Shown: positions 10,655-63,061 of the stretch, piece after piece
Layout: each line of letters begins with the position of its first letter
Position numbering within the stretch: the first letter of the stretch is position 1
Source: an uncultured Clostridia bacterium
Lineage (GTDB): Bacteria > Bacillota > Clostridia > TANB77 > CAG-508
Assembly (NCBI GenBank): GCA_944390695.1
Contig: CALXQP010000009.1
Span: 1-63,061, forward strand
DNA: 63,061 bases
Reading direction: 5' to 3'
Made by a program: the position numbers and the translations under genes
Notes under the pieces: generated by a model
Seen by the model: only the letters and a program-made list of their open reading frames with translations
What the model was told of the DNA's origin: nothing
Databases searched by the model: none

Positions 10655-11206
10655 ATGAATATAATTAACTATATTTCAATAATAGTTATACCTTTGGTTA
10701 TTTTGATTATTGCATTTAGAGGTTTGAAAGAAAAAATTTCTGTTTTTGACATTTTTATTAAAGGTGCTACAGATGGACTAGAAATTACTTTGAAAATATT
10801 TCCTACTTTAGTAGGATTGTTTGTAGCTATTGGAATGCTTAGAAGTTCTGGTATTTTAGAATTTATTACTGAATTGATTTCTCCAATTCTTGTTATGTTA
10901 AGATTTCCAGCAGAAATTGTTCCTCTTGCACTATTAAGACCAATTTCAGGTAGTGCTTCAATGGCTATTGCTACAGAAATCATTAAACAAAGTGGAGTTG
11001 ATTCTTTTATAGGAATTTTGGCAGCTGTAATAATGGGCTCTACTGAGACTACATTATATACAATTGCAGTATATTCAAGTAGTGTAAAAATTAAAAATAC
11101 TAGAGGTGTAATTTTTGCAGCTTTGGCTGCTGACTTAACAGGTATTATAGTTTCACTTTTAATTGTTAATTTGGTGCCGGTTCTCTTTTTGCCTTTTTCG
11201 CCCTAG
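10655..11206 (+). CDS. spmB: Spore maturation protein B; last ~14 codons are encoded by a repeat element
   Basis: 183 aa polytopic membrane protein with RPISGSASMAIA and MGSTETTLYT motifs. The C-terminal ..VNLVPVLFLPFSP* lies inside repeat 11165-11263. Confidence 0.85.
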   Translation: MNIINYISIIVIPLVILIIAFRGLKEKISVFDIFIKGATDGLEITLKIFPTLVGLFVAIGMLRSSGILEFITELISPILVMLRFPAEIVPLALLRPISGSASMAIATEIIKQSGVDSFIGILAAVIMGSTETTLYTIAVYSSSVKIKNTRGVIFAALAADLTGIIVSLLIVNLVPVLFLPFSP

Positions 11207-11263
11207 CTCGCTTGGCTGGCCGGTTTTGGCCGTTTTGTTAATTTGGTGCCGGTTCTCTTTTTT
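11165..11263 (+). repeat. GC-rich composite repeat, family A (two 26-nt half-sites and a 46-nt spacer)
   Basis: GTTAATTTGGTGCCGGTTCTCTTTTT occurs at 11165-11190 and again at 11237-11263. The spacer is homologous to the spacers at 24999-25094 and 34136-34233. Confidence 0.85.
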
Positions 11264-11546
11264 CTCTTTTTGGTGGCGTCGAATTTTGTCGAACGATTTT
11301 TGTTGACAAATTGAAAAAAATGATGTAACATAATATTAGTCAAAGATAATTAAATCAAATTTTTTAAATCAAGTTTTTAATTTTGTAAAGGGAATAATTT
11401 AAATTCCCCCATTTTAAACTAATTAGATAAGTATTTTTTTAAAATTATTTTTTATAAATTAAACTTTAGGCCCCCTAAATCCTATAAATGTTCTTTAATA
11501 CATAATAAAATTAGTTCTTAAATTATTCTCTTTACAATCAAATATA

Positions 11547-19088: not shown

Positions 19089-19315
19089 AATTATTATAAC
19101 ATACTTGTCAAGTACATGAATTTTCAAATTTCGGTATTTTCCGTGAACATCCCTCAACTGTTTAAATAACATTTTCTATTTTTTTACTCCAATCAAACGC
19201 AAGGATTTTGGAGTTAGAATATAACTTGAGAGGGTTAAGGGGGGAGTTCGAAAAAAATACCGAAACTTAAAGCAAAATAGTACTTGAATTTACGGGAATT
19301 TATGTTATAATAATT
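19089..19315. repeat. ~227-bp imperfect palindrome filling the ttcA/tRNA-Arg intergenic region (family C module)
   Basis: Nested inverted repeats are listed in the findings. The central TACTCCAA..TTGGAGT and CTTGAGAGGG..AAAATACCGAAACTT modules recur at 28541-28640. Confidence 0.75.
19284..19311 (+). promoter_or_regulatory. Sigma-A-type promoter for tRNA-Arg
   Basis: TTGAAT-16 nt-TATAAT with a TGT extended -10, 12 nt upstream of the tRNA 5' end. Confidence 0.6.
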
Positions 19316-23557: not shown

Positions 23558-23766
23558 CAAATTGGTGCAAATTGGTGCCGGTTCTCTTTTTGCCTTTTGG
23601 GGTGTGGCTGGTGAGGGTAAATTGGTGTCGGTTCTCTTTTTTACATTTTGCTCTAAGCTGGCTAATCAAGCGGCATAAGGACAAAATGTAAAAAAGAGAA
23701 CCGGCACCAATTTACCCTCGCCAGCCATACCCAAAAGAGAAAAAGAAGAACCGGCACCAAATTAAC
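23558..23766. repeat. Two family-A repeat units in tail-to-tail inverted orientation (a ~210-bp palindrome)
   Basis: Half-sites AAATTGGTGCCGGTTCTCTTTTT (23569-23591, preceded by a truncated CAAATTGGTG at 23558-23567) and AAATTGGTGTCGGTTCTCTTTTTT (23619-23642) lie on the + strand. Their reverse complements are at 23690-23713 and 23741-23766. Confidence 0.9.
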
Positions 23767-24953: not shown

Positions 24954-24992
24954 TTAAAAAAGCTGAGGAGAAAAACTTTTTAGTTTTTCTCC
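24954..24992 (-). terminator. Rho-independent terminator of the GT28 gene (distal to the repeat)
   Basis: On the - strand, GGAGAAAAAC-loop-GTTTTTCTCC is followed by TCAGCTTTTTT. Confidence 0.7.
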
Positions 24993-24998
24993 AATAGC

Positions 24999-25094
24999 AA
25001 AAAAAGAACCGGCACCAAATTAACAAAACAGCCCAAACTGAACAGCCAAGTGGCCCGGAACGAAAAAGGCGAAAAGGGAACCGGCACCAATTTG
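24999..25094 (-). repeat. Family-A composite repeat unit
   Basis: AAAAAAAGAACCGGCACCAAATTAAC is at 24999-25024 and GAAAAGGGAACCGGCACCAATTTG at 25071-25094. The spacer is homologous to the spacers at 11191-11236 and 34162-34207. Confidence 0.85.
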
Positions 25095-26219
25095 TTATTT
25101 TAAGAGAATTTTGCAAATATCTTTTGTAGAATTTTTTTTCGCGATAAGTCTAGCACGGATTTTCATTTCTTGCATTTTATCTGGATTAGAAAACAACTTA
25201 TGCAAAATTTCTTCTACATTATCATCTTTTTTTAACCAAATAGCAACTTTATTTTCTTCTAAATATGCAGCATTTTCTTCTTCTTGACCTGGTATAGGAT
25301 TAATTACTACAATTGGCAAGCCTGAAGCTAAGCTTTCAGTTGTTGTAAGACCACCTGGTTTAGTAACAACTAAATCTGATATACTCATTAATTGAGGAAT
25401 TTTATCAGTAAATTCTAGTATTTTTACATATTCTTGTTTCCCAAGCTCATTAACTAAGTTTTCAAAATTTTCTTTCATCTTTTGATTTTTCCCAGAAATA
25501 GCTACAATTTGAATATTTTCGTGACATTCAACAAAAGATTGAAAAATTCTAAGAGTTTGTGTTTTTCCTAAACCAAATTCTCCGCCTCCAAAGAAAAGTA
25601 CAGTTTTTCTATTAGGAGATAATCCGAAACTTTCTAAAATTTGTGATTTATCATATTTTAATAAAAATTTATTAGAAAGAGGAATACCTGTTGCAAAAAT
25701 TTTTTCTTTTGGAATACCTTTTTCATTCAATTTATTTTTCATTCCTTGATGAGAAACAAAATAATAATCTACATATTTGTTGAAAACAAGCCACTGGTCA
25801 TGTGGAGCATAATCTGTCATAACTGTTGCAATTTTTGCATCTAATTTTCCTAATTTTTTTAAATAGGCACACATTTGAGTTGCAAAAGGATGTGTGGAAA
25901 TTATGATATCTGGGTCAAAGTCTTTTAATAATTTGTTTAATTTAATTGATAAGACTTTGTTTGAAGTTGTACTTATTTTTGCAAGTGGCCCACTTTGTGA
26001 TTTCCAATAAACTTTTCCCCATGTTTTTGGCACTTTTTTTGCCATTTCTGAATATGCTTTTGTTGTTACTTTATTAACTAGTTTATTAACATATTCCATA
26101 CAATCAACTAATTTGACATTTACATCTTTATAATTTGTCTCAATATTTTCTTTTATAGAACGAGCAGCTGATAAGTGACCTCCACCATATGCTGCATAAA
26201 ATATCATTACTTTTTTCAT
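25095..26219 (-). CDS. Diacylglycerol glycosyltransferase (MGDG synthase/UgtP-like, GT28)
   Basis: 374 aa with the MIFYAAYGGGHLSAARSI N-terminal MGDG-synthase motif and the C-terminal GT-B motif KPGGLTTTESLASGLP. Confidence 0.85.
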   Translation of the reverse strand: MKKVMIFYAAYGGGHLSAARSIKENIETNYKDVNVKLVDCMEYVNKLVNKVTTKAYSEMAKKVPKTWGKVYWKSQSGPLAKISTTSNKVLSIKLNKLLKDFDPDIIISTHPFATQMCAYLKKLGKLDAKIATVMTDYAPHDQWLVFNKYVDYYFVSHQGMKNKLNEKGIPKEKIFATGIPLSNKFLLKYDKSQILESFGLSPNRKTVLFFGGGEFGLGKTQTLRIFQSFVECHENIQIVAISGKNQKMKENFENLVNELGKQEYVKILEFTDKIPQLMSISDLVVTKPGGLTTTESLASGLPIVVINPIPGQEEENAAYLEENKVAIWLKKDDNVEEILHKLFSNPDKMQEMKIRARLIAKKNSTKDICKILLK

Positions 26220-26238
26220 ATTGACTCCTTATTTTTTT

Positions 26239-26329
26239 AAAGCTACAATCGCTGGTCCTTTGAGATTTTCTACTTGTAGTTGAAAACTCAAGTCGGGCGA
26301 GAACAAATTAAAGAAAAACTTATTTGTCC
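26239..26329 (+). repeat. Family-D repeat, partial copy
   Basis: AAAGCTACAATCGCTGGTCCTTTGAGATTTTC..AAAACTCAAGTCGGGCGAGAACAAATTAAAG aligns with 61962-62040 and 62826-62895. Confidence 0.7.
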
Positions 26330-27937: not shown

Positions 27938-28117
27938 ATGTCTAAAGGAAACAAATTAATATCTGAAAACTTACGAACAGAAATAGCAAAAGAATTAGGT
28001 GTTTATGATCAAGTAAAAAGAGATGGCGGAAGTTGGGAAAATGTATCATCTAAAACATGTGGAAGTATAGTTTCAAAAGCTATAGAAATTGCAAACAGAG
28101 CAGTGGAAAATCAATAG
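27938..28117 (+). CDS. Small acid-soluble spore protein, alpha/beta type (59 aa; below the ORF-track cutoff)
   Basis: Hand translation gives MSKGNKLISENLRTEIAKELGVYDQVKRDGGSWENVSSKTCGSIVSKAIEIANRAVENQ*. The EIAxELGV motif and the G-rich second helix region fit alpha/beta SASPs. A GGAAAGGAGAGG RBS and a strong downstream terminator are present. Confidence 0.75.
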   Translation: MSKGNKLISENLRTEIAKELGVYDQVKRDGGSWENVSSKTCGSIVSKAIEIANRAVENQ

Positions 28118-28148
28118 TTTTTAGATATGCAATGATAATTGATATTTT

Positions 28149-28192
28149 AATACCAGAATCTATGTATTGTAGATTTTGGTATTTTTCTTTTT
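28149..28192 (+). terminator. Rho-independent terminator after the SASP gene
   Basis: 13-bp stem ATACCAGAATCTA/TAGATTTTGGTAT followed by TTTTTCTTTTTT. Confidence 0.75.
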
Positions 28193-28231
28193 TGATTTAA
28201 ATAAAGTTTTAATATTTTTATGAAGTCAATT

Positions 28232-28608
28232 CAAACTTCCAAAGTTATAACTTTCACGCCCAAAATACTTGCTATTCATTACGTAAAAAAGAGAATTTAA
28301 TCTAAAAAACGAGTTTCTTTCGGAGTTTGCCATAATCTTTATATATTTTTGAATAAATTTCTCGGCTACCCGCCGTAACGTTAACAAATTCTAATGCAAA
28401 AGGCACAACTATACCCGAAGACAGGACCCTTTATGCCTTTTGCTTAAGAATTTGTAACACTACTCTGGTCACACTCGTAATTTATTTAAAATATATAAAG
28501 ATTATGGAAAATTGCTAAATATTCCTCTATTTTTGAGTAATATTTTCTACTTTTTACTCCAATAAAACACATGGATTTTGGAGTGAGAGTTATAGCTTGG
28601 GAAACTTG
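28232..28608. repeat. ~377-bp nested foldback palindrome containing the ~125-nt core element (core 28355-28480)
   Basis: The structure is symmetric about 28420. Arms 28232-28259 and 28581-28608 match 22/28 as inverted repeats, and arms 28330-28359 and 28478-28506 are also inverted repeats. The central hairpin is at 28380-28458. The core recurs reverse-complemented at 43657-43782. Confidence 0.8.
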
Positions 28609-28706
28609 AGAGGGTTTCAAAAAAATACCAAAATTTAAATGATTTTATTCTTGCCAAAAATAAAAAATTAGAATATAATAAGAAAAATTCATTTTGGGGG
28701 TAAAGT

Positions 28707-30095
28707 ATGCAAGTAAAAAAAATATTAGAAATAACAAAAGGCATATTAGTAACAGGTGATGAAAATTTAGAATGTGAAAATTTTTCAAAAGATACAAGAA
28801 CTATACAAAAAGGGGATATTTACATAGGGATTAAAGGAGAAAAGTTTGATGGAAGTCTATTTTGGAAACAAGCATTAGATAATGGAGCAAGTGCAGTCAT
28901 AATTGAAAATATAAAAATAACAAATGAGGAAAAGGAAAAATATTCAAATAAAACAATTATAGAAGTAAAAGATACTTTAGGGGCTTTATATGAAATTGCA
29001 AAATATAAAAGGAGCTTATATGATATTCCTGTTATTGCAATTACAGGAAGTGTAGGCAAAACAAGTACAAAAGATATAATTGCAAGTGTTGTTAGTACAA
29101 AATATAAGACTTTAAAAACAGAAGGCAATAATAATAATAATATTGGCTTGCCATTAACAATTTTAAAATTAAAAGATCATGAAGCACTTGTAATAGAAAT
29201 GGGAATGAACCATTTTGGAGAAATAAGTTTATTAACAAATATAGCAAGACCAACATTAGCTGTAATAACCAATATAGGAACATCACATATTGGAAATTTA
29301 GGTTCAAGAGAAAATATCTTAAAGGCAAAATTAGAAATATTAGAAGGAATGAAGGTTCCAAAAATAATTATAAATAATGATAATGATTTATTACATAATT
29401 GGTATGAAGAAAACAAGAAAAATATAGAGATACATACATGTGGTATAAAAAATGAAAGTGAATTAATGGCAAAACAAATACAGTTGAATGAAGAAAATAG
29501 TGAATTTATAGCTGTATCTGCTTCAGATAAAATTATGCTTAGAGTACCTGTTGGTGGAGAACATTTTGTGTATAATTCATTATGTGCAACAGAAGTTGGA
29601 AAATTATTAGGGCTTTCAAATGAACAAATAGTAGATGGAATTTCTAAATTTGAATTATCTAAAAAAAGGATGGATATTATAAAATTGGATAATGGAGCTA
29701 TTATGATAAATGATAGTTATAATGCAAGTTATGAGTCTATGAAAGCAAGTTTAGAATTTTTAAAAACTCATACAGGGAAAAGGAAAATTGCTGTATTAGG
29801 AGATATGCTAGAACTAGGAGAATATTCGAAAGAGCTACATGCGAAAGTGGGAGAAGAAGTTTCTAAAAGAGATATTGATATATTAATTTGCACAGGTGAG
29901 AATTCAAAATATATTATAAAAGAAGCGGAAAAAAATGAAAAAATAAAAATATTTTTTATGAACAGTAATGAACAAATTGTGGAAAAACTATCTCAAGAAT
30001 TAAAAGATGGAGATATTGTTTTAGTAAAAGCATCAAATGGAATGAAATTTTACGAAATTTGTAAAAAAACTATAGATTTTTTTGCTAAAAGTTGA
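28707..30095 (+). CDS. murF: UDP-N-acetylmuramoyl-tripeptide--D-alanyl-D-alanine ligase
   Basis: 462 aa with the Mur ligase P-loop ITGSVGKTSTKD and the C-terminal DSYNAS motif. Confidence 0.9.
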   Translation: MQVKKILEITKGILVTGDENLECENFSKDTRTIQKGDIYIGIKGEKFDGSLFWKQALDNGASAVIIENIKITNEEKEKYSNKTIIEVKDTLGALYEIAKYKRSLYDIPVIAITGSVGKTSTKDIIASVVSTKYKTLKTEGNNNNNIGLPLTILKLKDHEALVIEMGMNHFGEISLLTNIARPTLAVITNIGTSHIGNLGSRENILKAKLEILEGMKVPKIIINNDNDLLHNWYEENKKNIEIHTCGIKNESELMAKQIQLNEENSEFIAVSASDKIMLRVPVGGEHFVYNSLCATEVGKLLGLSNEQIVDGISKFELSKKRMDIIKLDNGAIMINDSYNASYESMKASLEFLKTHTGKRKIAVLGDMLELGEYSKELHAKVGEEVSKRDIDILICTGENSKYIIKEAEKNEKIKIFFMNSNEQIVEKLSQELKDGDIVLVKASNGMKFYEICKKTIDFFAKS

Positions 30096-34061: not shown

Positions 34062-34135
34062 GCGTAAAAAATTCAAAAACACGAAAAAACTTTCGCTAAA
34101 TGCTTGAAAAAAATAATAAAATATTATAAAATGGC

Positions 34136-34233
34136 AAAAAGAGAACCGGCACCAAATTGACAAAATGGCGCAAACCAGCTAGACAGGCTGGCCAGGAGGA
34201 AAAAGACAAAAAGAGAACCGGCACCAAATTAAC
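34136..34233 (-). repeat. Family-A composite repeat unit in the leader of the sbcD-like gene
   Basis: AAAAAGAGAACCGGCACCAAATTGAC is at 34136-34161 and AAAAAGAGAACCGGCACCAAATTAAC at 34208-34233. Confidence 0.9.
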
Positions 34234-34253
34234 AGAAAGGAATGTTAATAGAA

Positions 34254-35324
34254 ATGAAATTTGTACATATAGCAGATATGCATTTTGATTCTCCTTTGAC
34301 GAATTTATCAGACAAAGGAAATTTGGGAGAACAAAGAAGAATAGAACAGAGAAGAGTATTCAAAAAAGTAATAGAATATATAAAAGAAAATAAAACAGAA
34401 TTATTGTTTATATCAGGAGATTTATATGAACATAAATATATAAGAAAATCAACAATAGAATATATAAATAATTTATTTAAAGAAATAAAAGATACAAAAA
34501 TATTTATATCTCCAGGAAATCATGATCCATTTTTAAAGAAATCATATTATAATGATTTCAATTGGAGTGAAAATGTACATATATTTGGACCACAAATAGA
34601 AAGAGTTGAATTAGAAGATATAGATATATATGGATTTGGATTTGATGATTTTTATTGTACACAGTCAAATATAGAAAATGTTGAAATTAAAAATCCTGAG
34701 AAAATTAATGTTTTAATAATACATGGAACATTAGATGGAGCAAATTTAGAAGAAAGGCAATATAATTCAATGAATTCGAAAATGCTTAAAGATAAAGGAT
34801 TTGATTATATTGCATTAGGTCATATTCATAAAAATAATTTTGAAAAAAATGCAAATATTATTTATCCAGGTTCAACAATATCATTAGGTTTTGATGAATT
34901 AGGAAATCATGGAATGATAGTTGGGGAAATTAATAAAAATTCTAATAAAATAGAATTTATAAAATTAGATGAAACTGAGTTTGTTGAATTTGAAATAGAT
35001 TGTACAGAAATAAATTCAGTTGAAGATTTAATAGAAAAAATAAATGAAATAAATATGGAAGAAAATAAATTATATAAAATAATATTATTAGGTAAAAGAA
35101 ATTTTGAAATAAATATATATGATTTATATAAATATGAATTAAATGATAGAATAATTAAAATAAAAAATAAAACAAAACCAAATTATGATATTGAAAAAAT
35201 TGCAAAAGAAAATACATTAAGAGGATTATTTACAAAAGAAATTTTAGATGAAATTAAAAAGAAAAATTATGATGAAGAGATAATTGAAAAAGCTTTAGAA
35301 ATAGGAATGGAAGTATTAGAATAA
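34254..35324 (+). CDS. DNA repair exonuclease, SbcD/Mre11-family metallophosphoesterase (YhaO-like)
   Basis: Has the MKFVHIADMHFD start and the GDLYE, GNHD, IHG and GHIH phosphoesterase motifs. The track start of 34242 is also possible. Confidence 0.85.
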   Translation: MKFVHIADMHFDSPLTNLSDKGNLGEQRRIEQRRVFKKVIEYIKENKTELLFISGDLYEHKYIRKSTIEYINNLFKEIKDTKIFISPGNHDPFLKKSYYNDFNWSENVHIFGPQIERVELEDIDIYGFGFDDFYCTQSNIENVEIKNPEKINVLIIHGTLDGANLEERQYNSMNSKMLKDKGFDYIALGHIHKNNFEKNANIIYPGSTISLGFDELGNHGMIVGEINKNSNKIEFIKLDETEFVEFEIDCTEINSVEDLIEKINEINMEENKLYKIILLGKRNFEINIYDLYKYELNDRIIKIKNKTKPNYDIEKIAKENTLRGLFTKEILDEIKKKNYDEEIIEKALEIGMEVLE

Positions 35325-35349
35325 GTTTTAAAAATTTGGAGGGATTTAT

Positions 35350-37302
35350 TTGAAAATAAATAAAATAAAAATAAATTCATATGGAAAATTAAAAAATAAA
35401 GAAATAAATTTAGAAAATAATATGAATATCATTTATGGAAAAAATGAAAGTGGAAAATCAACATTATTAAAATTTATTGTAAATATTTTTTTCGGTGCAT
35501 CAAGAAATAAAAAAGGTAGAGATATTTCAGATTTTGAAAAATATAAACCATGGGATGCAGAAGAATATTCTGGAAAATTAACATATGAATTAGATGATAA
35601 AAATAAGTATGAGATTTTTAGAGAATTTAATAAAAAAAATCCAAAAATATTTAATGAAAAGGGAGAAGAGATTTCAAAAGAATTTAATATTGATAAAAAT
35701 AAAGGTAATGAATTCTTTTTTGAGCAGACTCAGATTAGCGAAGATATGTTTTTAGCAACATCTGTTTCTATGCAACAAGAAGTGAAAATTGCTAAAGATG
35801 CTCAAAATATTTTAATCCAAAAAATCTCTAATCTCTTAGGGACAGGAGAAGATAGTGTTTCATACAAAAAGGCATTAGAAAAATTATATAAAATACAATT
35901 GGAAAAAGTAGGAACTGATAGAAGTAGAGAAAAGCCAATAAATATTATAAGAAAAAATATAGAAATAAATGAGCAAAAAATTAATGAATTAAAAAAATAT
36001 GAAAATATTCAATATGATATTGAAGAACAAAAAAAAGAAATAAAAAATGAATTAGAAAAAAATAAAATAAAAAATGAATTATTAAAAGAAATAAAAATAA
36101 TTAAAGAAAAAAATAATTTAGAAAATGAGAAAATAAAAATAAAAGAAAAAATTGTAGAAGAAAATAAAAATAAAATAAATGAATTAAAAAATAAAATAGA
36201 AAAAATAAATAATAAATATTTGGAAGAAAAAAATAATGAAAAATATTCAGAAAATAATTATGAAAAAAATAAATTAAATAAAAAATTAAATTTATTTTTT
36301 ATTATTTTAATTTTATTAAATATTTTATGGATTATTTTTATTCCAAAAATAAATAATAATTTTATTTTTAAATATATTTTTCTCCTTACGGTACCAACGT
36401 TTTTAATTTTTTCTATATTTTTGAAAAATAAATTAAAAAATAAAATAAAAATATTAGAAGAAAATAAAAATAATTATTTAGAAAAAATAAATATAGAAAA
36501 AAATAATTTAGAAAAAGAGAATAAAATAATAGAAAAAAATTCAGAGGAAATATTAGAAGAAATAAATAAAATAAAAATAGAAAATAATTTAAAAAATAAT
36601 TTAGAAAAAGAAAAAATAATAAATAAATATTTAAATAAAATAAAAATAGAAGAAATAAATTATTTATTTAATTTAGAGAAAATAAATGAAGAAATAAATT
36701 ATTATGAAAATAAAATTTATAATTTAAATTTAGAAATAAATAAATTAGAAATAAAAAAAGAAAATATTGAACCAGAATTAGAAAATTTGTCAAATTTAGA
36801 AGAAGAATTATATGCTGCAAAAGAAGAATATGAGGTTTTGAAAAAAACAAAAGAAAGTATAGAATTAGCAAAAAATTTATTAGCTAAATCTTATGAAAAA
36901 ATGAAAAATAGTGTAAGTCCAATTTTTACAGAAAAATTATCAAAAAATATAGAAAAAATTACAAAAGGAAAATATAGTAATATATTTTTCAGTGATGAAC
37001 AAGGATTAACTGTGGAATTAGAAAACGGAAATTATATACCTGCTGAAAGATTAAGTATAGGAACTATTGATCAATTATATTTGTCTTTAAGATTAGCTAT
37101 GTTAGATGAGGTTTCTAAAGAAAAAATTCCAATCATTTTAGATGAATCTTTTGCTTATTATGATGATGAAAGATTGAAAAATATTTTGAGTTTTTTGGTG
37201 AATGAGTTTTCAGATAGACAGATTATTTTATTAACTTGTACAGAAAGGGAAAAGGAAATTCTTGATAGTGAGAGTGTAAATTATAATTACATAGAACTTT
37301 AA
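35350..37302 (+). CDS. SbcC/Rad50-like AAA ATPase (YhaN-like) with an internal TM hairpin
   Basis: Has an N-terminal Walker A GKNESGKST and a long K/N/E/I-rich coiled coil. The C-terminal part carries signature-like LSIGTIDQLYLSLRLA and Walker B IPIILDESF. TTG start follows GGAGGGA. Confidence 0.8.
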   Translation: MKINKIKINSYGKLKNKEINLENNMNIIYGKNESGKSTLLKFIVNIFFGASRNKKGRDISDFEKYKPWDAEEYSGKLTYELDDKNKYEIFREFNKKNPKIFNEKGEEISKEFNIDKNKGNEFFFEQTQISEDMFLATSVSMQQEVKIAKDAQNILIQKISNLLGTGEDSVSYKKALEKLYKIQLEKVGTDRSREKPINIIRKNIEINEQKINELKKYENIQYDIEEQKKEIKNELEKNKIKNELLKEIKIIKEKNNLENEKIKIKEKIVEENKNKINELKNKIEKINNKYLEEKNNEKYSENNYEKNKLNKKLNLFFIILILLNILWIIFIPKINNNFIFKYIFLLTVPTFLIFSIFLKNKLKNKIKILEENKNNYLEKINIEKNNLEKENKIIEKNSEEILEEINKIKIENNLKNNLEKEKIINKYLNKIKIEEINYLFNLEKINEEINYYENKIYNLNLEINKLEIKKENIEPELENLSNLEEELYAAKEEYEVLKKTKESIELAKNLLAKSYEKMKNSVSPIFTEKLSKNIEKITKGKYSNIFFSDEQGLTVELENGNYIPAERLSIGTIDQLYLSLRLAMLDEVSKEKIPIILDESFAYYDDERLKNILSFLVNEFSDRQIILLTCTEREKEILDSESVNYNYIEL

Positions 37303-43495: not shown

Positions 43496-43580
43496 TTGTA
43501 AACCTCCACGACTTTTATAAATATATTATACTATGATTATTGATATATTTAAAGACACAATTTTTGGTAAAAAAGATTTG

Positions 43581-43856
43581 TTTAATTAATAATATTATAT
43601 TTATCCTTACCCATGTCCCATTTGATTTCCATCAATCATTACATATTTTGAACAAGTTACGAGTGTGACCGGAGTAGTGTTACAAATTCTTAAACAAAAG
43701 GCATAAAGGGTCCTGTCTTCGGGTATAGTTGTGCCTTTTGTGTTAGAATTTGTTAACGTGACATAGGGTAGCCGAGAAATTTGTGAAAAATATGTAATGA
43801 TTGATGGAAATCAAATGAGGCATGGGTAAGGATAAATATAACATTATTAATTAAAT
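43581..43856. repeat. ~276-bp foldback palindrome containing the second copy of the ~125-nt core (43657-43782, reverse orientation)
   Basis: The arms at 43581-43650 and 43786-43856 are near-perfect inverted repeats. The structure is symmetric about ~43718, which is the same 28-nt loop as the 28.4-kb copy. Confidence 0.85.
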
Positions 43857-43951
43857 AAAAAAGTTTGGATAATACTTGAAAAAAACACAAAATCAATATA
43901 TAATAATGACACGGTATAGGGGGCATTCAAAATTAGAAAGGAATGAATCGA

Positions 43952-61927: not shown

Positions 61928-62068
61928 CATATAATAGGAAAATTATATTTTCCTATTATATGAAAGGCTACAACCACTAGCTCTTTGAGATTTTCTCCTT
62001 ATAGTCAAAAACTCAAATCGGGCTAGAACAAATTAAAGAAAAATTGAAAATTTTTCTTATTTGTTCTT
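61928..62068 (+). repeat. Family-D hairpin-rich intergenic repeat, most complete copy
   Basis: Contains hairpin CATATAATAGGAAA..TTTCCTATTATATG, then GCTACAACC..CTTTGAGATTTTCTCCTTATAGTCAAAAACTCAAATCGGGCT, then hairpin AGAACAAAT..ATTTGTTCT. Confidence 0.8.
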
Positions 62069-62790: not shown

Positions 62791-62895
62791 TATATAATAG
62801 GAAAGTTAAACTTTCCTATTATATAAAAAGCTACAATCGCAGCCCTTTGAGATTTTCTCCTTATAGTCGAAAACTCAAATCGGGCAAGAACAAAT
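62791..62895 (+). repeat. Family-D repeat copy
   Basis: TATATAATAGGAAAGTTAAACTTTCCTATTATATAAAAAGCTACAATCGCAGCCCTTTGAGATTTTCTCCTTATAGTCGAAAACTCAAATCGGGCAAGAACAAAT. Confidence 0.8.
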
Positions 62896-63061
62896 CTTGA
62901 AATTTTATGATTGGCATTTTTTATGATGCATTTGAAAAAATATAAAAACTTAGAATTTAACGAGTTTGACAATTATTTTTTTATAAGTTATAATGCAAAT
63001 TGAAAATAAATTATGTAAAAGGTTGAAAAATAATTACAATTTTGGTTGTGCGCAGTGGCGA

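Follow-up and report, generated by a model that had tools for sequence, protein, structure and literature searches.

A dispersed foldback repeat with a conserved structured core and locus-specific arms in uncultured gut Clostridia

Two foldback copies and a solo arm module in one contig

The space between a SASP gene and murF in the window, namely the whole stretch of 63,061 nucleotides analysed here (uncultured Clostridia bacterium, GenBank assembly GCA_944390695.1, contig CALXQP010000009.1), is occupied by an imperfect palindrome. It spans positions 28232-28608, is centred near 28420 and comprises three tiers of arms, present and nested as the original prediction had described them. The element starts directly after the terminator of the SASP gene, and the promoter of murF is located between the element and murF. 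The features of this first copy are listed below, with a strand where one is assigned.

28149..28193, plus strand: intrinsic SASP terminator, at which the inserted block has its left limit; homology to strain L131 and relatives stops here
28187..28306: left outer arm, corresponding to the arm module in inverted and degenerate form, with a weak inverted match to the 19.1-kb module
28297..28349: left middle arm, pairing with 28488-28540 (53 nt, 75% complementary)
28339..28503, minus strand: core of copy 1 (covariance model R1, 174.2 bits on minus, 55 on plus)
28361..28371, minus strand: 3' internal-loop motif GGGUAGCCGAG, of which one pair with the 5' motif covaries
28407..28432, minus strand: apical loop AAAGGGUCCUGUCUUCGGGUAUAGUU, identical in both window copies
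28414-28425, minus strand: mini-hairpin CCUG-UCUU-CGGG in the apical loop
28467..28477, minus strand: 5' internal-loop motif CGAGUGUGACC (family consensus CGAAUGYGACY), conserved in subfamilies A1 to A3
28488..28540: right middle arm, partner of 28297-28349
28518..28639, plus strand: right outer arm, module 'B', TACTCCAA..TTGGAGT / CTTGAGAGGG / AAAATACC, aligning with 19146-19272
28651..28679, plus strand: murF promoter TTGCCA-17-TATAAT (11/12), right boundary, conserved in relatives without the element

The outer arms (28232-28259 and 28581-28608) are inverted repeats that match at 22 of 28 positions, in agreement with the prediction, and their extended alignment scores 23 as compared with 10.1 ± 1.5 for 500 dinucleotide shuffles, none of which reaches that value. 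Middle arms also exist where they had been proposed, the start given for the right one being one base off, and the central hairpin with its 28-nt loop is as described. Relative to shuffles, the 181 nt of 28330-28510 fold with z = -10 on the plus strand and z = -12 on the minus strand. The core is indeed richer in GC than its surroundings (0.33-0.35 versus 0.264 for the whole window). The left middle arm is unlike the arms found at the same site in strain L131.

The core was expected to recur in reverse complement, with an identical loop, at 43657-43782. This holds for 118 of the 126 positions of 28355-28480, including an identical stretch of 34 nt through the loop, a degree of identity that no shuffle matched; the proposed limits were nonetheless too narrow, homology between both copies reaching ~28330-28510. 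Copy 2 consists of the following features, its arms showing no sequence relationship to the outer arms of copy 1.

43577..43658: left arm, 82 nt, 91% complementary to 43778-43859; the same arms are found in L134/L135
43582..43595: left arm, extra stretch TTAATTAATAATAT at its outer end, where L134/L135 have TAC; the window is ~11 nt longer
43634..43797, plus strand: core of copy 2 (R1, 173.8 bits on plus), with the plus strand as the constrained one
43778..43859: right arm, complement of 43577-43658

The extra stretch TTAATTAATAATAT is an inverted copy of ATTATTAATTAA in the right flank, and it would reflect either growth of the palindrome in situ or a deletion in the other strain.

A third location carries arm-type sequence, as had been proposed for the right-arm module of copy 1, whose ~120 nt (28518-28639) align with 19146-19272.

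19125..19264, plus strand: solo foldback of arm type ('B'), preceding a tRNA gene and without the A core, homologous to an arm of the element at locus L097
19123-19153 and 19241-19271: arms of this foldback

Its alignment with the L097 arm scores 41 (10.9 ± 1.7 for shuffles, reached by 0 of 500), and it shows a weak full-length match to R1 (16 bits, E 0.007 within 401 nt). The DNA depth of module 'B', measured on the right outer arm, is 3-4x that of single-copy sequence.

The core family, its fold and its RNA signal

Searching with a 20-mer of the apical loop retrieved 49 loci in ~22 MAGs from human, rabbit, mouse, sheep, goat and other guts, so that the further copies anticipated for the core are in fact many. 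A covariance model built from 41 distinct copies added more diverged copies without the 20-mer, together with two more subfamilies that have another apical mini-hairpin and the same basal loops and helices. Altogether, the core family amounts to >55 copies in ~22 MAGs of uncultured gut Clostridia. The invariance of the apical loop is partly imposed, because the ascertainment 20-mer was taken from it. In chicken-gut DNA, the habitat of the window organism, the core is ~30-40x deeper than single-copy flanks. An assembly artefact is excluded, since independent assemblies from many studies carry the element with unique genes on both sides.

The view of a structured non-coding element without a family name agrees with the Rfam gathering scan, which returned only tRNA and SRP RNA for the whole window and left the core unmatched. 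An E-value scan of 28100-28720 gave only miRNA-hairpin matches far below threshold (29.5 bits versus a gathering value of 87). The core had no BLASTN match in the phage and plasmid collections searched, and scans of viral contigs gave either none or two chance matches that the covariance model rejected. The literature searched, for the loop sequence included, contained no description of the family. It is an undescribed, dispersed repeat of AT-rich gut Clostridia.

The core comprises ~165 nt and a consensus of 40 pairs, 30 of which are changed on both sides. Paired cells represent 94.9% of the alignment, as compared with 77.1% after column shuffles and 36-50% when partners are slid. On the minus strand of copy 1, the consensus structure runs from P1, with its tandem UGAA/UGAA mismatch, through a conserved irregular internal loop to P2, P3 and the apical loop. 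Covariation alone proves little here, because the arms stay complementary through a DNA-level process; the palindrome correction at DNA level by which arms remain paired might in principle have produced the covariation of the stems as well, which leaves the G·U bias and the conserved asymmetric loops as the sole arguments for selection.

When read on one strand, hereafter the constrained one, the inner stems contain 45 G·U versus 7 A·C combinations (not counting an invariant U·G pair located within the search word). Helix P1 has 3 G·U versus 5 A·C, and the long arms have 71 G·U versus 98 A·C, without RNA-type wobble bias. The tandem mismatch in P1 and the Y34-G145 pair fit the constrained strand only, as do the asymmetric motifs CGAAUGYGACY and RGGUAGCCGAG, for which 'correction' to a palindrome never occurs. 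A pair between these two internal-loop motifs is found as C-G (23), U-A (15) or U-G (2). The constrained strand corresponds to the minus strand of the window at copy 1 and to the plus strand at copy 2, and it is the complement of the strand on which the original prediction had described the core.

The core thus combines pair-preserving covariation with one-strand wobble, as generally expected from structured RNAs. Considering (i) the strand bias, (ii) the tandem mismatch and (iii) the loop motifs that escape correction, the core is probably under selection to fold as a single strand. Its consensus fold is an irregular three-helix rod with conserved internal loops, on one strand.

Contigs from five metatranscriptomic or RNA-Seq libraries (pig, bovine, chicken, unspecified gut and wastewater) cover the core, with zero coverage of flanking genes, and the whole locus appears in no RNA run searched. 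Core-sized inserts were found in two libraries, of ~134 nt with adapters on both sides in chicken X43 and of ~139 nt in X29. Carry-over of DNA was controlled for with the unrelated 'GGTGCCGGTTC' repeat, whose depth in DNA is one to three times that of the core and which has zero coverage in X43. These data, consisting of a few low-depth contigs that are possibly PCR duplicates, support real transcription of the core. As judged from adapter orientation in two libraries of unspecified chemistry, read 1 corresponds to the constrained strand in X43 and to the other strand in X29.

Gene context, polymorphism and remodelling of the palindromes

The element lies outside the neighbouring transcription units. 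Copy 2 is found between the divergent promoters of mecA and radC, and in neither window copy was a convincing internal promoter or terminator detected; the only sigma-70-like match (9/12) falls in a private arm of copy 1 and is not conserved, and the core itself holds no promoter-like site. Among 52 copies, the orientation relative to neighbouring genes is random, with all four arrangements about equally represented. Housekeeping genes without relation to one another adjoin the copies, and a given gene family recurs only at orthologous loci. The same strand of the core had been expected to face the downstream gene (murF or mecA), which is contradicted both by this random orientation and by a near-identical strain in which the core is inverted. 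Regarding murF, 78 of 80 metagenomic loci are without a family member and only L097 and L098 have one; relatives at the SASP|murF site display just ~125 nt, corresponding to terminator and promoter. The closest murF relative in these metagenomes is 77% identical, so none of them offers a close empty site for copy 1.

The family, being small, ORF-less and multi-copy, shows presence/absence polymorphism, inverted duplication, flipping and nesting. Almost all copies form the tip of an inverted repeat reaching 86-264 nt from the centre. Farther than ~25 nt from the core the arm sequences differ among copies, even at the same site in close strains, and arms are common to sub-lineages only. As an example, L010 and L016 have flanks ~95% identical and arms ~65% identical, each arm pair being perfectly self-complementary. 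Likewise, L131 and the window have, at the SASP|murF site, near-identical flanks, a ~95% identical core and only loosely related arms. One MAG contains three 99%-identical copies of 480 nt, each flanked by sequence of its own, which once more forms inverted repeats (25-50 nt).

Insertion-site polymorphism between strains, which had been suggested as worth comparing, was observed in one clean filled/empty pair (L097/L099). In L099 the site is an intrinsic terminator with the 24-nt loop TTTTAAAAGCACAATGTCTAAAAA, while L097 and L098 present 432 nt between the same stem halves; the right flanks are identical at 600 of 600 positions. From left to right, the 432-nt block comprises the loop in reverse complement, a foldback of 384 nt and the loop itself. 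In L097 its left 24 nt are the exact reverse complement of its right 24 nt, and the target is thus duplicated in inverted orientation. The sole direct repeat in this pair is TTTT (4 nt), intrinsic to the target loop. Its presence at both ends permits a precise deletion, so we infer the direction of the change, insertion being suggested by the empty allele having the form of a normal terminator.

Flipping is seen at the mecA/radC locus. In L134/L135, with RadC 99% identical, the arms of copy 2 are kept while a 118-nt core is exactly inverted, matching the reverse complement at 117 of 119 positions versus 77 of 128 on the same strand. A contig from chicken-gut run X2 (Logan) has the same flipped junction, and the orthologous loci L022 and L031 also differ in core orientation. 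An invertible segment between inverted repeats therefore exists in both orientations. In L026 and L043, an inner copy occupies the apical loop of an older, oppositely oriented family member.

Clear homology (scores 22-41 versus ~11 ± 2) links both the outer arms of copy 1 and the 19.1-kb module to arms of the L097 element, which belongs to a distant species. Specifically, the right outer arm scores 29 against an arm of that element (11.0 ± 1.7 for shuffles), and the left outer arm scores 22 against the reverse complement of its right arm (11.4 ± 1.9), values reached in both cases by 0 of 500 shuffles. The outer tier of copy 1 is therefore an inherited layer and not a local accident. Relative to these homologous arms, the core of copy 1 is flipped with regard to that of L097. 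Homology of the window outer arms to the outer shell of L026 is marginal, 8-40 of 500 shuffles reaching the score.

Regarding a possible parent transposon, 138 loci were inspected, without finding a transposase-like neighbour or a split copy enclosing an ORF. The sole split copy (L026) encloses another copy of the element, which led to its rejection as an autonomous form, and the gene located between two inverted copies at L014 was rejected as a transposase, since it encodes a zinc-ribbon protein. No transposase, recombinase or reverse transcriptase was linked to the element and no autonomous copy was present among the loci examined, no HUH or tyrosine recombinase gene adjoins any of 52 copies, and no RAYT gene was seen in the window upon inspection of ORF starts.

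Nature of the element and its relation to known systems

The explanation that we favour, with confidence slightly above even, is that of a foldback mobile element that is non-autonomous and has an apex active as a single strand, probably of RNA. The element would land in or beside existing hairpins, as suggested by the terminator loop occupied at L097, by the window site immediately following the terminator of the SASP gene, and by L026, where an older copy hosts it in its apical loop. Unpaired sequence between the element and the host stem would then be copied, inverted, to the other side, most likely by template switching during replication of the quasi-palindrome. Each locus would thereby gain private self-complementary arms, with old arms travelling as inner layers, and the outcome would be the nested, onion-like structure found upstream of murF. 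Recombination between arms would flip the core, ordinary recombination being sufficient to explain it. The core, acting as a single strand, may be the module recognised by a factor encoded elsewhere, and we lean modestly towards RNA over extruded single-stranded DNA as its active form. A conserved centre together with private ends suggests a mobile unit defined by its structure. The ends, a caveat for any mobile reading, are not conserved; we know of no characterised bacterial transposon with this property.

A bolder possibility, which we regard as unlikely, is that the family represents a new class of mobile element, namely a unit defined by its structure (the extruded hairpin as a whole) and not by terminal sequences, which homes to hairpin loops and grows through inverted target duplication, the apex being a new structured RNA needed for spread and possibly catalytic or a handle for an enzyme. 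Its distribution would be wide, covering uncultured gut Clostridia from humans as well as livestock.

Two alternatives differ from the mobile-element explanation mainly in the active molecule. There is some chance, albeit a small one, that the copies are stand-alone genes for a trans-acting structured small RNA, for instance a protein-binding one, the arms being by-products or processing signals. Cutting of the arms by a double-strand-specific RNase would release the core, and multi-copy spread would be secondary. A structure specific to one strand, in which loops are conserved and both G·U pairs and tandem G·A mismatches occur, a position outside neighbouring transcription units, the short core-sized inserts of X43 and X29, and the negative control for DNA contamination are all consistent with such genes. 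They would nevertheless be expected to have a conserved promoter or terminator, which was not found, and their arms are without RNA-type wobble bias. Moreover, orthologous sites are empty in most relatives, a copy at a given site may be present, absent or inverted between close strains, and copies nest, which is the behaviour of mobile DNA and not of a housekeeping RNA gene.

It is less probable that the core is a single-stranded DNA hairpin recognised by an enzyme encoded elsewhere, in the manner of REP/REPIN-RAYT, attC-IntI or IS200/IS605 ends, with transcripts being incidental. The strand bias would fit, as G·T pairs are tolerated in DNA hairpins too, long arms would aid hairpin extrusion, and all the dynamics (hairpin-loop targets, flipping and inverted duplication) occur at the DNA level; the GTAG of the 3' loop motif, present also in REP heads, is possibly a coincidence. 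On the other hand, a conserved 165-nt multi-helix module with irregular internal loops is far larger than the single-stranded DNA recognition hairpins known to us, and its mini-hairpin of 4 bp, invariant and including a T·G pair, would be marginal in DNA form. Further points against this proposal are that the constrained strands of the two window copies lie on opposite chromosome strands, so that there is no replication-strand bias, that RNA was detected for the core and not for an equally abundant repeat, and that the 52 copies adjoin no HUH or tyrosine recombinase gene.

We consider it very improbable that the element is an inverton, with the arms as inverted repeats and the core as a phase-variable promoter or regulatory segment. 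Exact inversion of the core between near-identical strains and between orthologous loci is what such a switch would produce; nonetheless, the core is free of promoter-like sites, the promoters of the neighbours lie outside the element, and these neighbours are unrelated housekeeping genes in all four orientations. In addition, inspection of flanks revealed no adjacent invertase gene, and arm length and sequence vary from copy to copy. Finally, a cis-regulatory leader or riboswitch of murF (and mecA), suggested by the upstream position at murF and by the family member upstream of murF at the distant locus L097, has a negligible probability and is refuted, because orientation is random with no downstream gene common to 52 copies, the promoter of murF lies downstream of an element that follows the SASP terminator, the core flips, and only 2 of 80 murF loci carry it.

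Returning to the mobile foldback element, both parts of the earlier suggestion of a foldback MITE or a structured RNA capture something of it, although the usual marks of a MITE are missing. Terminal inverted repeats are not conserved among copies, and instead of a direct target duplication of fixed length there is a 24-nt inverted one, from the single pair L097/L099. It does not conform to the short hairpins of 20-40 nt of REP/REPIN either, the module having 165 nt and three helices, nor to a PATE derived from IS200/IS605, since it is a single symmetric foldback with private ends and does not have different sub-terminal hairpins plus a fixed tetra- or pentanucleotide target.

The element is best placed with the bacterial intergenic palindromic repeats. 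RNA-level constraint has been argued for some families of the ERIC/IRU, Correia (NEMIS) and bcr1 type. The likeness to these lies in being 100-200 nt long, multi-copy, intergenic, hairpin-forming, variably present and (co-)transcribed. They have conserved termini and direct target duplications, while here the centre is conserved, the ends are private and one duplication is inverted; the core described here, unlike them, flips and displays conserved asymmetric internal loops and a one-strand wobble bias. Stem-loop sequence families of bacteria have been catalogued (PMC2267715).

REP/REPIN sequences are similarly hairpin repeats thought to act single-stranded, with a GTAG motif beside a helix, and are mobilised by RAYT, an enzyme encoded once elsewhere in the genome. 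REPs differ in being 20-40 nt long and in occurring in hundreds of copies, whereas a 165-nt multi-helix module with long locus-specific arms is found here. Class C group II introns insert after terminators. Insertion into or next to pre-existing stem-loops is thus common to these introns, to the present element and to IS1397/ISKpn1. The introns and IS1397/ISKpn1 are, however, protein-coding or ribozymes with defined ends, and our element has neither an ORF nor group II features. IS1397/ISKpn1 insert in the loops of palindromic units. IS elements that target REPs are covered in PMC1525189.

For the origin of the arms, the closest parallel is quasi-palindrome correction, in which an imperfect palindrome becomes perfect by copying one arm from the other. 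Template switching at quasi-palindromes is an established mutational route; the model, based on replication, is reportedly due to Ripley, and hotspots in E. coli are said to have been studied by Lovett and colleagues. Such correction would account for three observations made here, namely the 24-nt duplication in inverted orientation, the lengthening of an arm by ~11 nt and the changes mirrored between arms. To our knowledge, it has been described for point or short-patch mutations and not for nested palindromes of 300-500 nt around a mobile core. In the flip/flop termini of parvoviruses and poxviruses, an asymmetric hairpin tip occurs in two inverted-complement orientations. The present family resembles them in having two tip orientations between otherwise identical arms, with the difference that those are the ends of linear replicons, generated by hairpin-primed replication, while here the hairpin is internal to the chromosome.

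The finding is real and goes beyond one odd hairpin, and the interpretation that had linked it to murF and mecA is wrong. In practical terms, short-read assemblies break at the core of this family, and its members will be mis-called as invertons or gene leaders. Covariation within a palindrome is not proof of RNA structure without a test of strand bias. Should the mobile-element explanation fail, a well-defined new repeat family, useful for strain typing, would still be left. If it holds, a widespread and unnamed structured element would be added to the repertoire of gut Clostridia, together with a route to build and remodel long palindromes through hairpin-loop homing, inverted target duplication and flipping, and with a tractable case of a mobile unit defined by its conserved centre and not by its ends.

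Variability at the two insertion sites

In metagenomes of chicken gut and air, Logan contigs carry the spacer between the SASP gene and murF in alleles or relatives lacking either the left outer arm or the entire inserted block (foldback element copy 1 with its outer arms), with the following junctions in metagenome DNA runs.

Logan junctions at the SASP-murF site (window positions)
28183/28355, run X5
28099/28661, run X3
28125/28707, runs X1-X3

The spacer between mecA and radC, which holds copy 2, is also occupied in loci L136-L138, from a species whose RadC is 88% identical, by an element of a third subfamily, both its apical loop, GGGGAACCCAAAUUUAUUUGGGGAGUGA, and its arms differing from those of the window element. 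The presence of this third subfamily at the same site indicates that the spacer is either an insertion hotspot or a place of old occupancy with fast turnover.

Nested and paired copies in other genomes

At L026:7000-7440 and in L043, loci from other genomes, the apical loop of an older family member holds a second member in the opposite orientation, the distance from the outer CTCGGCTACC to GTCRCATTCG being 294 nt versus the usual ~120. Another locus, L014:6605-7604, carries two copies inverted relative to each other and spaced by 790 nt, a layout resembling that of a composite transposon; nonetheless, the enclosed gene was rejected as a transposase, its product being a 176-aa zinc-ribbon protein. 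A typical member was also detected on an 8.8-kb contig (L027, NZ_JAZUMY010000039.1) of a MAG binned as Methanobrevibacter, probably reflecting a binning error rather than an archaeal copy.

Other repeats and a putative hairpin nuclease

The module AATTGGTGCCGGTTCTCTTTTT is the building unit of a second repeat family, unrelated to the foldback element family. A 93-nt repeat is present in three copies, which are 67-81% identical.

Further repeats in the window
23569-23763, AATTGGTGCCGGTTCTCTTTTT-module repeat, four modules, 195-nt foldback (82-nt arms, 88% complementarity)
11167-11284, 24991-25093 and 34128-34240, further AATTGGTGCCGGTTCTCTTTTT-module sites
26226-26318, 61951-62043 and 62813-62905, 93-nt repeat

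In chicken-gut runs the AATTGGTGCCGGTTCTCTTTTT repeat reached DNA depths of 370-1930x versus ~14x for single-copy sequence, and it had zero coverage in the chicken RNA library X43. The first 93-nt copy adjoins the 5' side of a glycosyltransferase-like gene (25095-26219, minus strand); the repeat matched nothing in Rfam at E <= 1, and could be an unnamed leader motif.

Finally, positions 34242-37302 contain a gene pair resembling, as judged from motifs only, SbcD (FVHIADMHFD at the N-terminus) and an SbcC/YhaN-type ATPase (long, K/E/N-rich coiled coil). On the basis of this pair, a hairpin nuclease would seem to be present in the organism, although its long palindromes are many.
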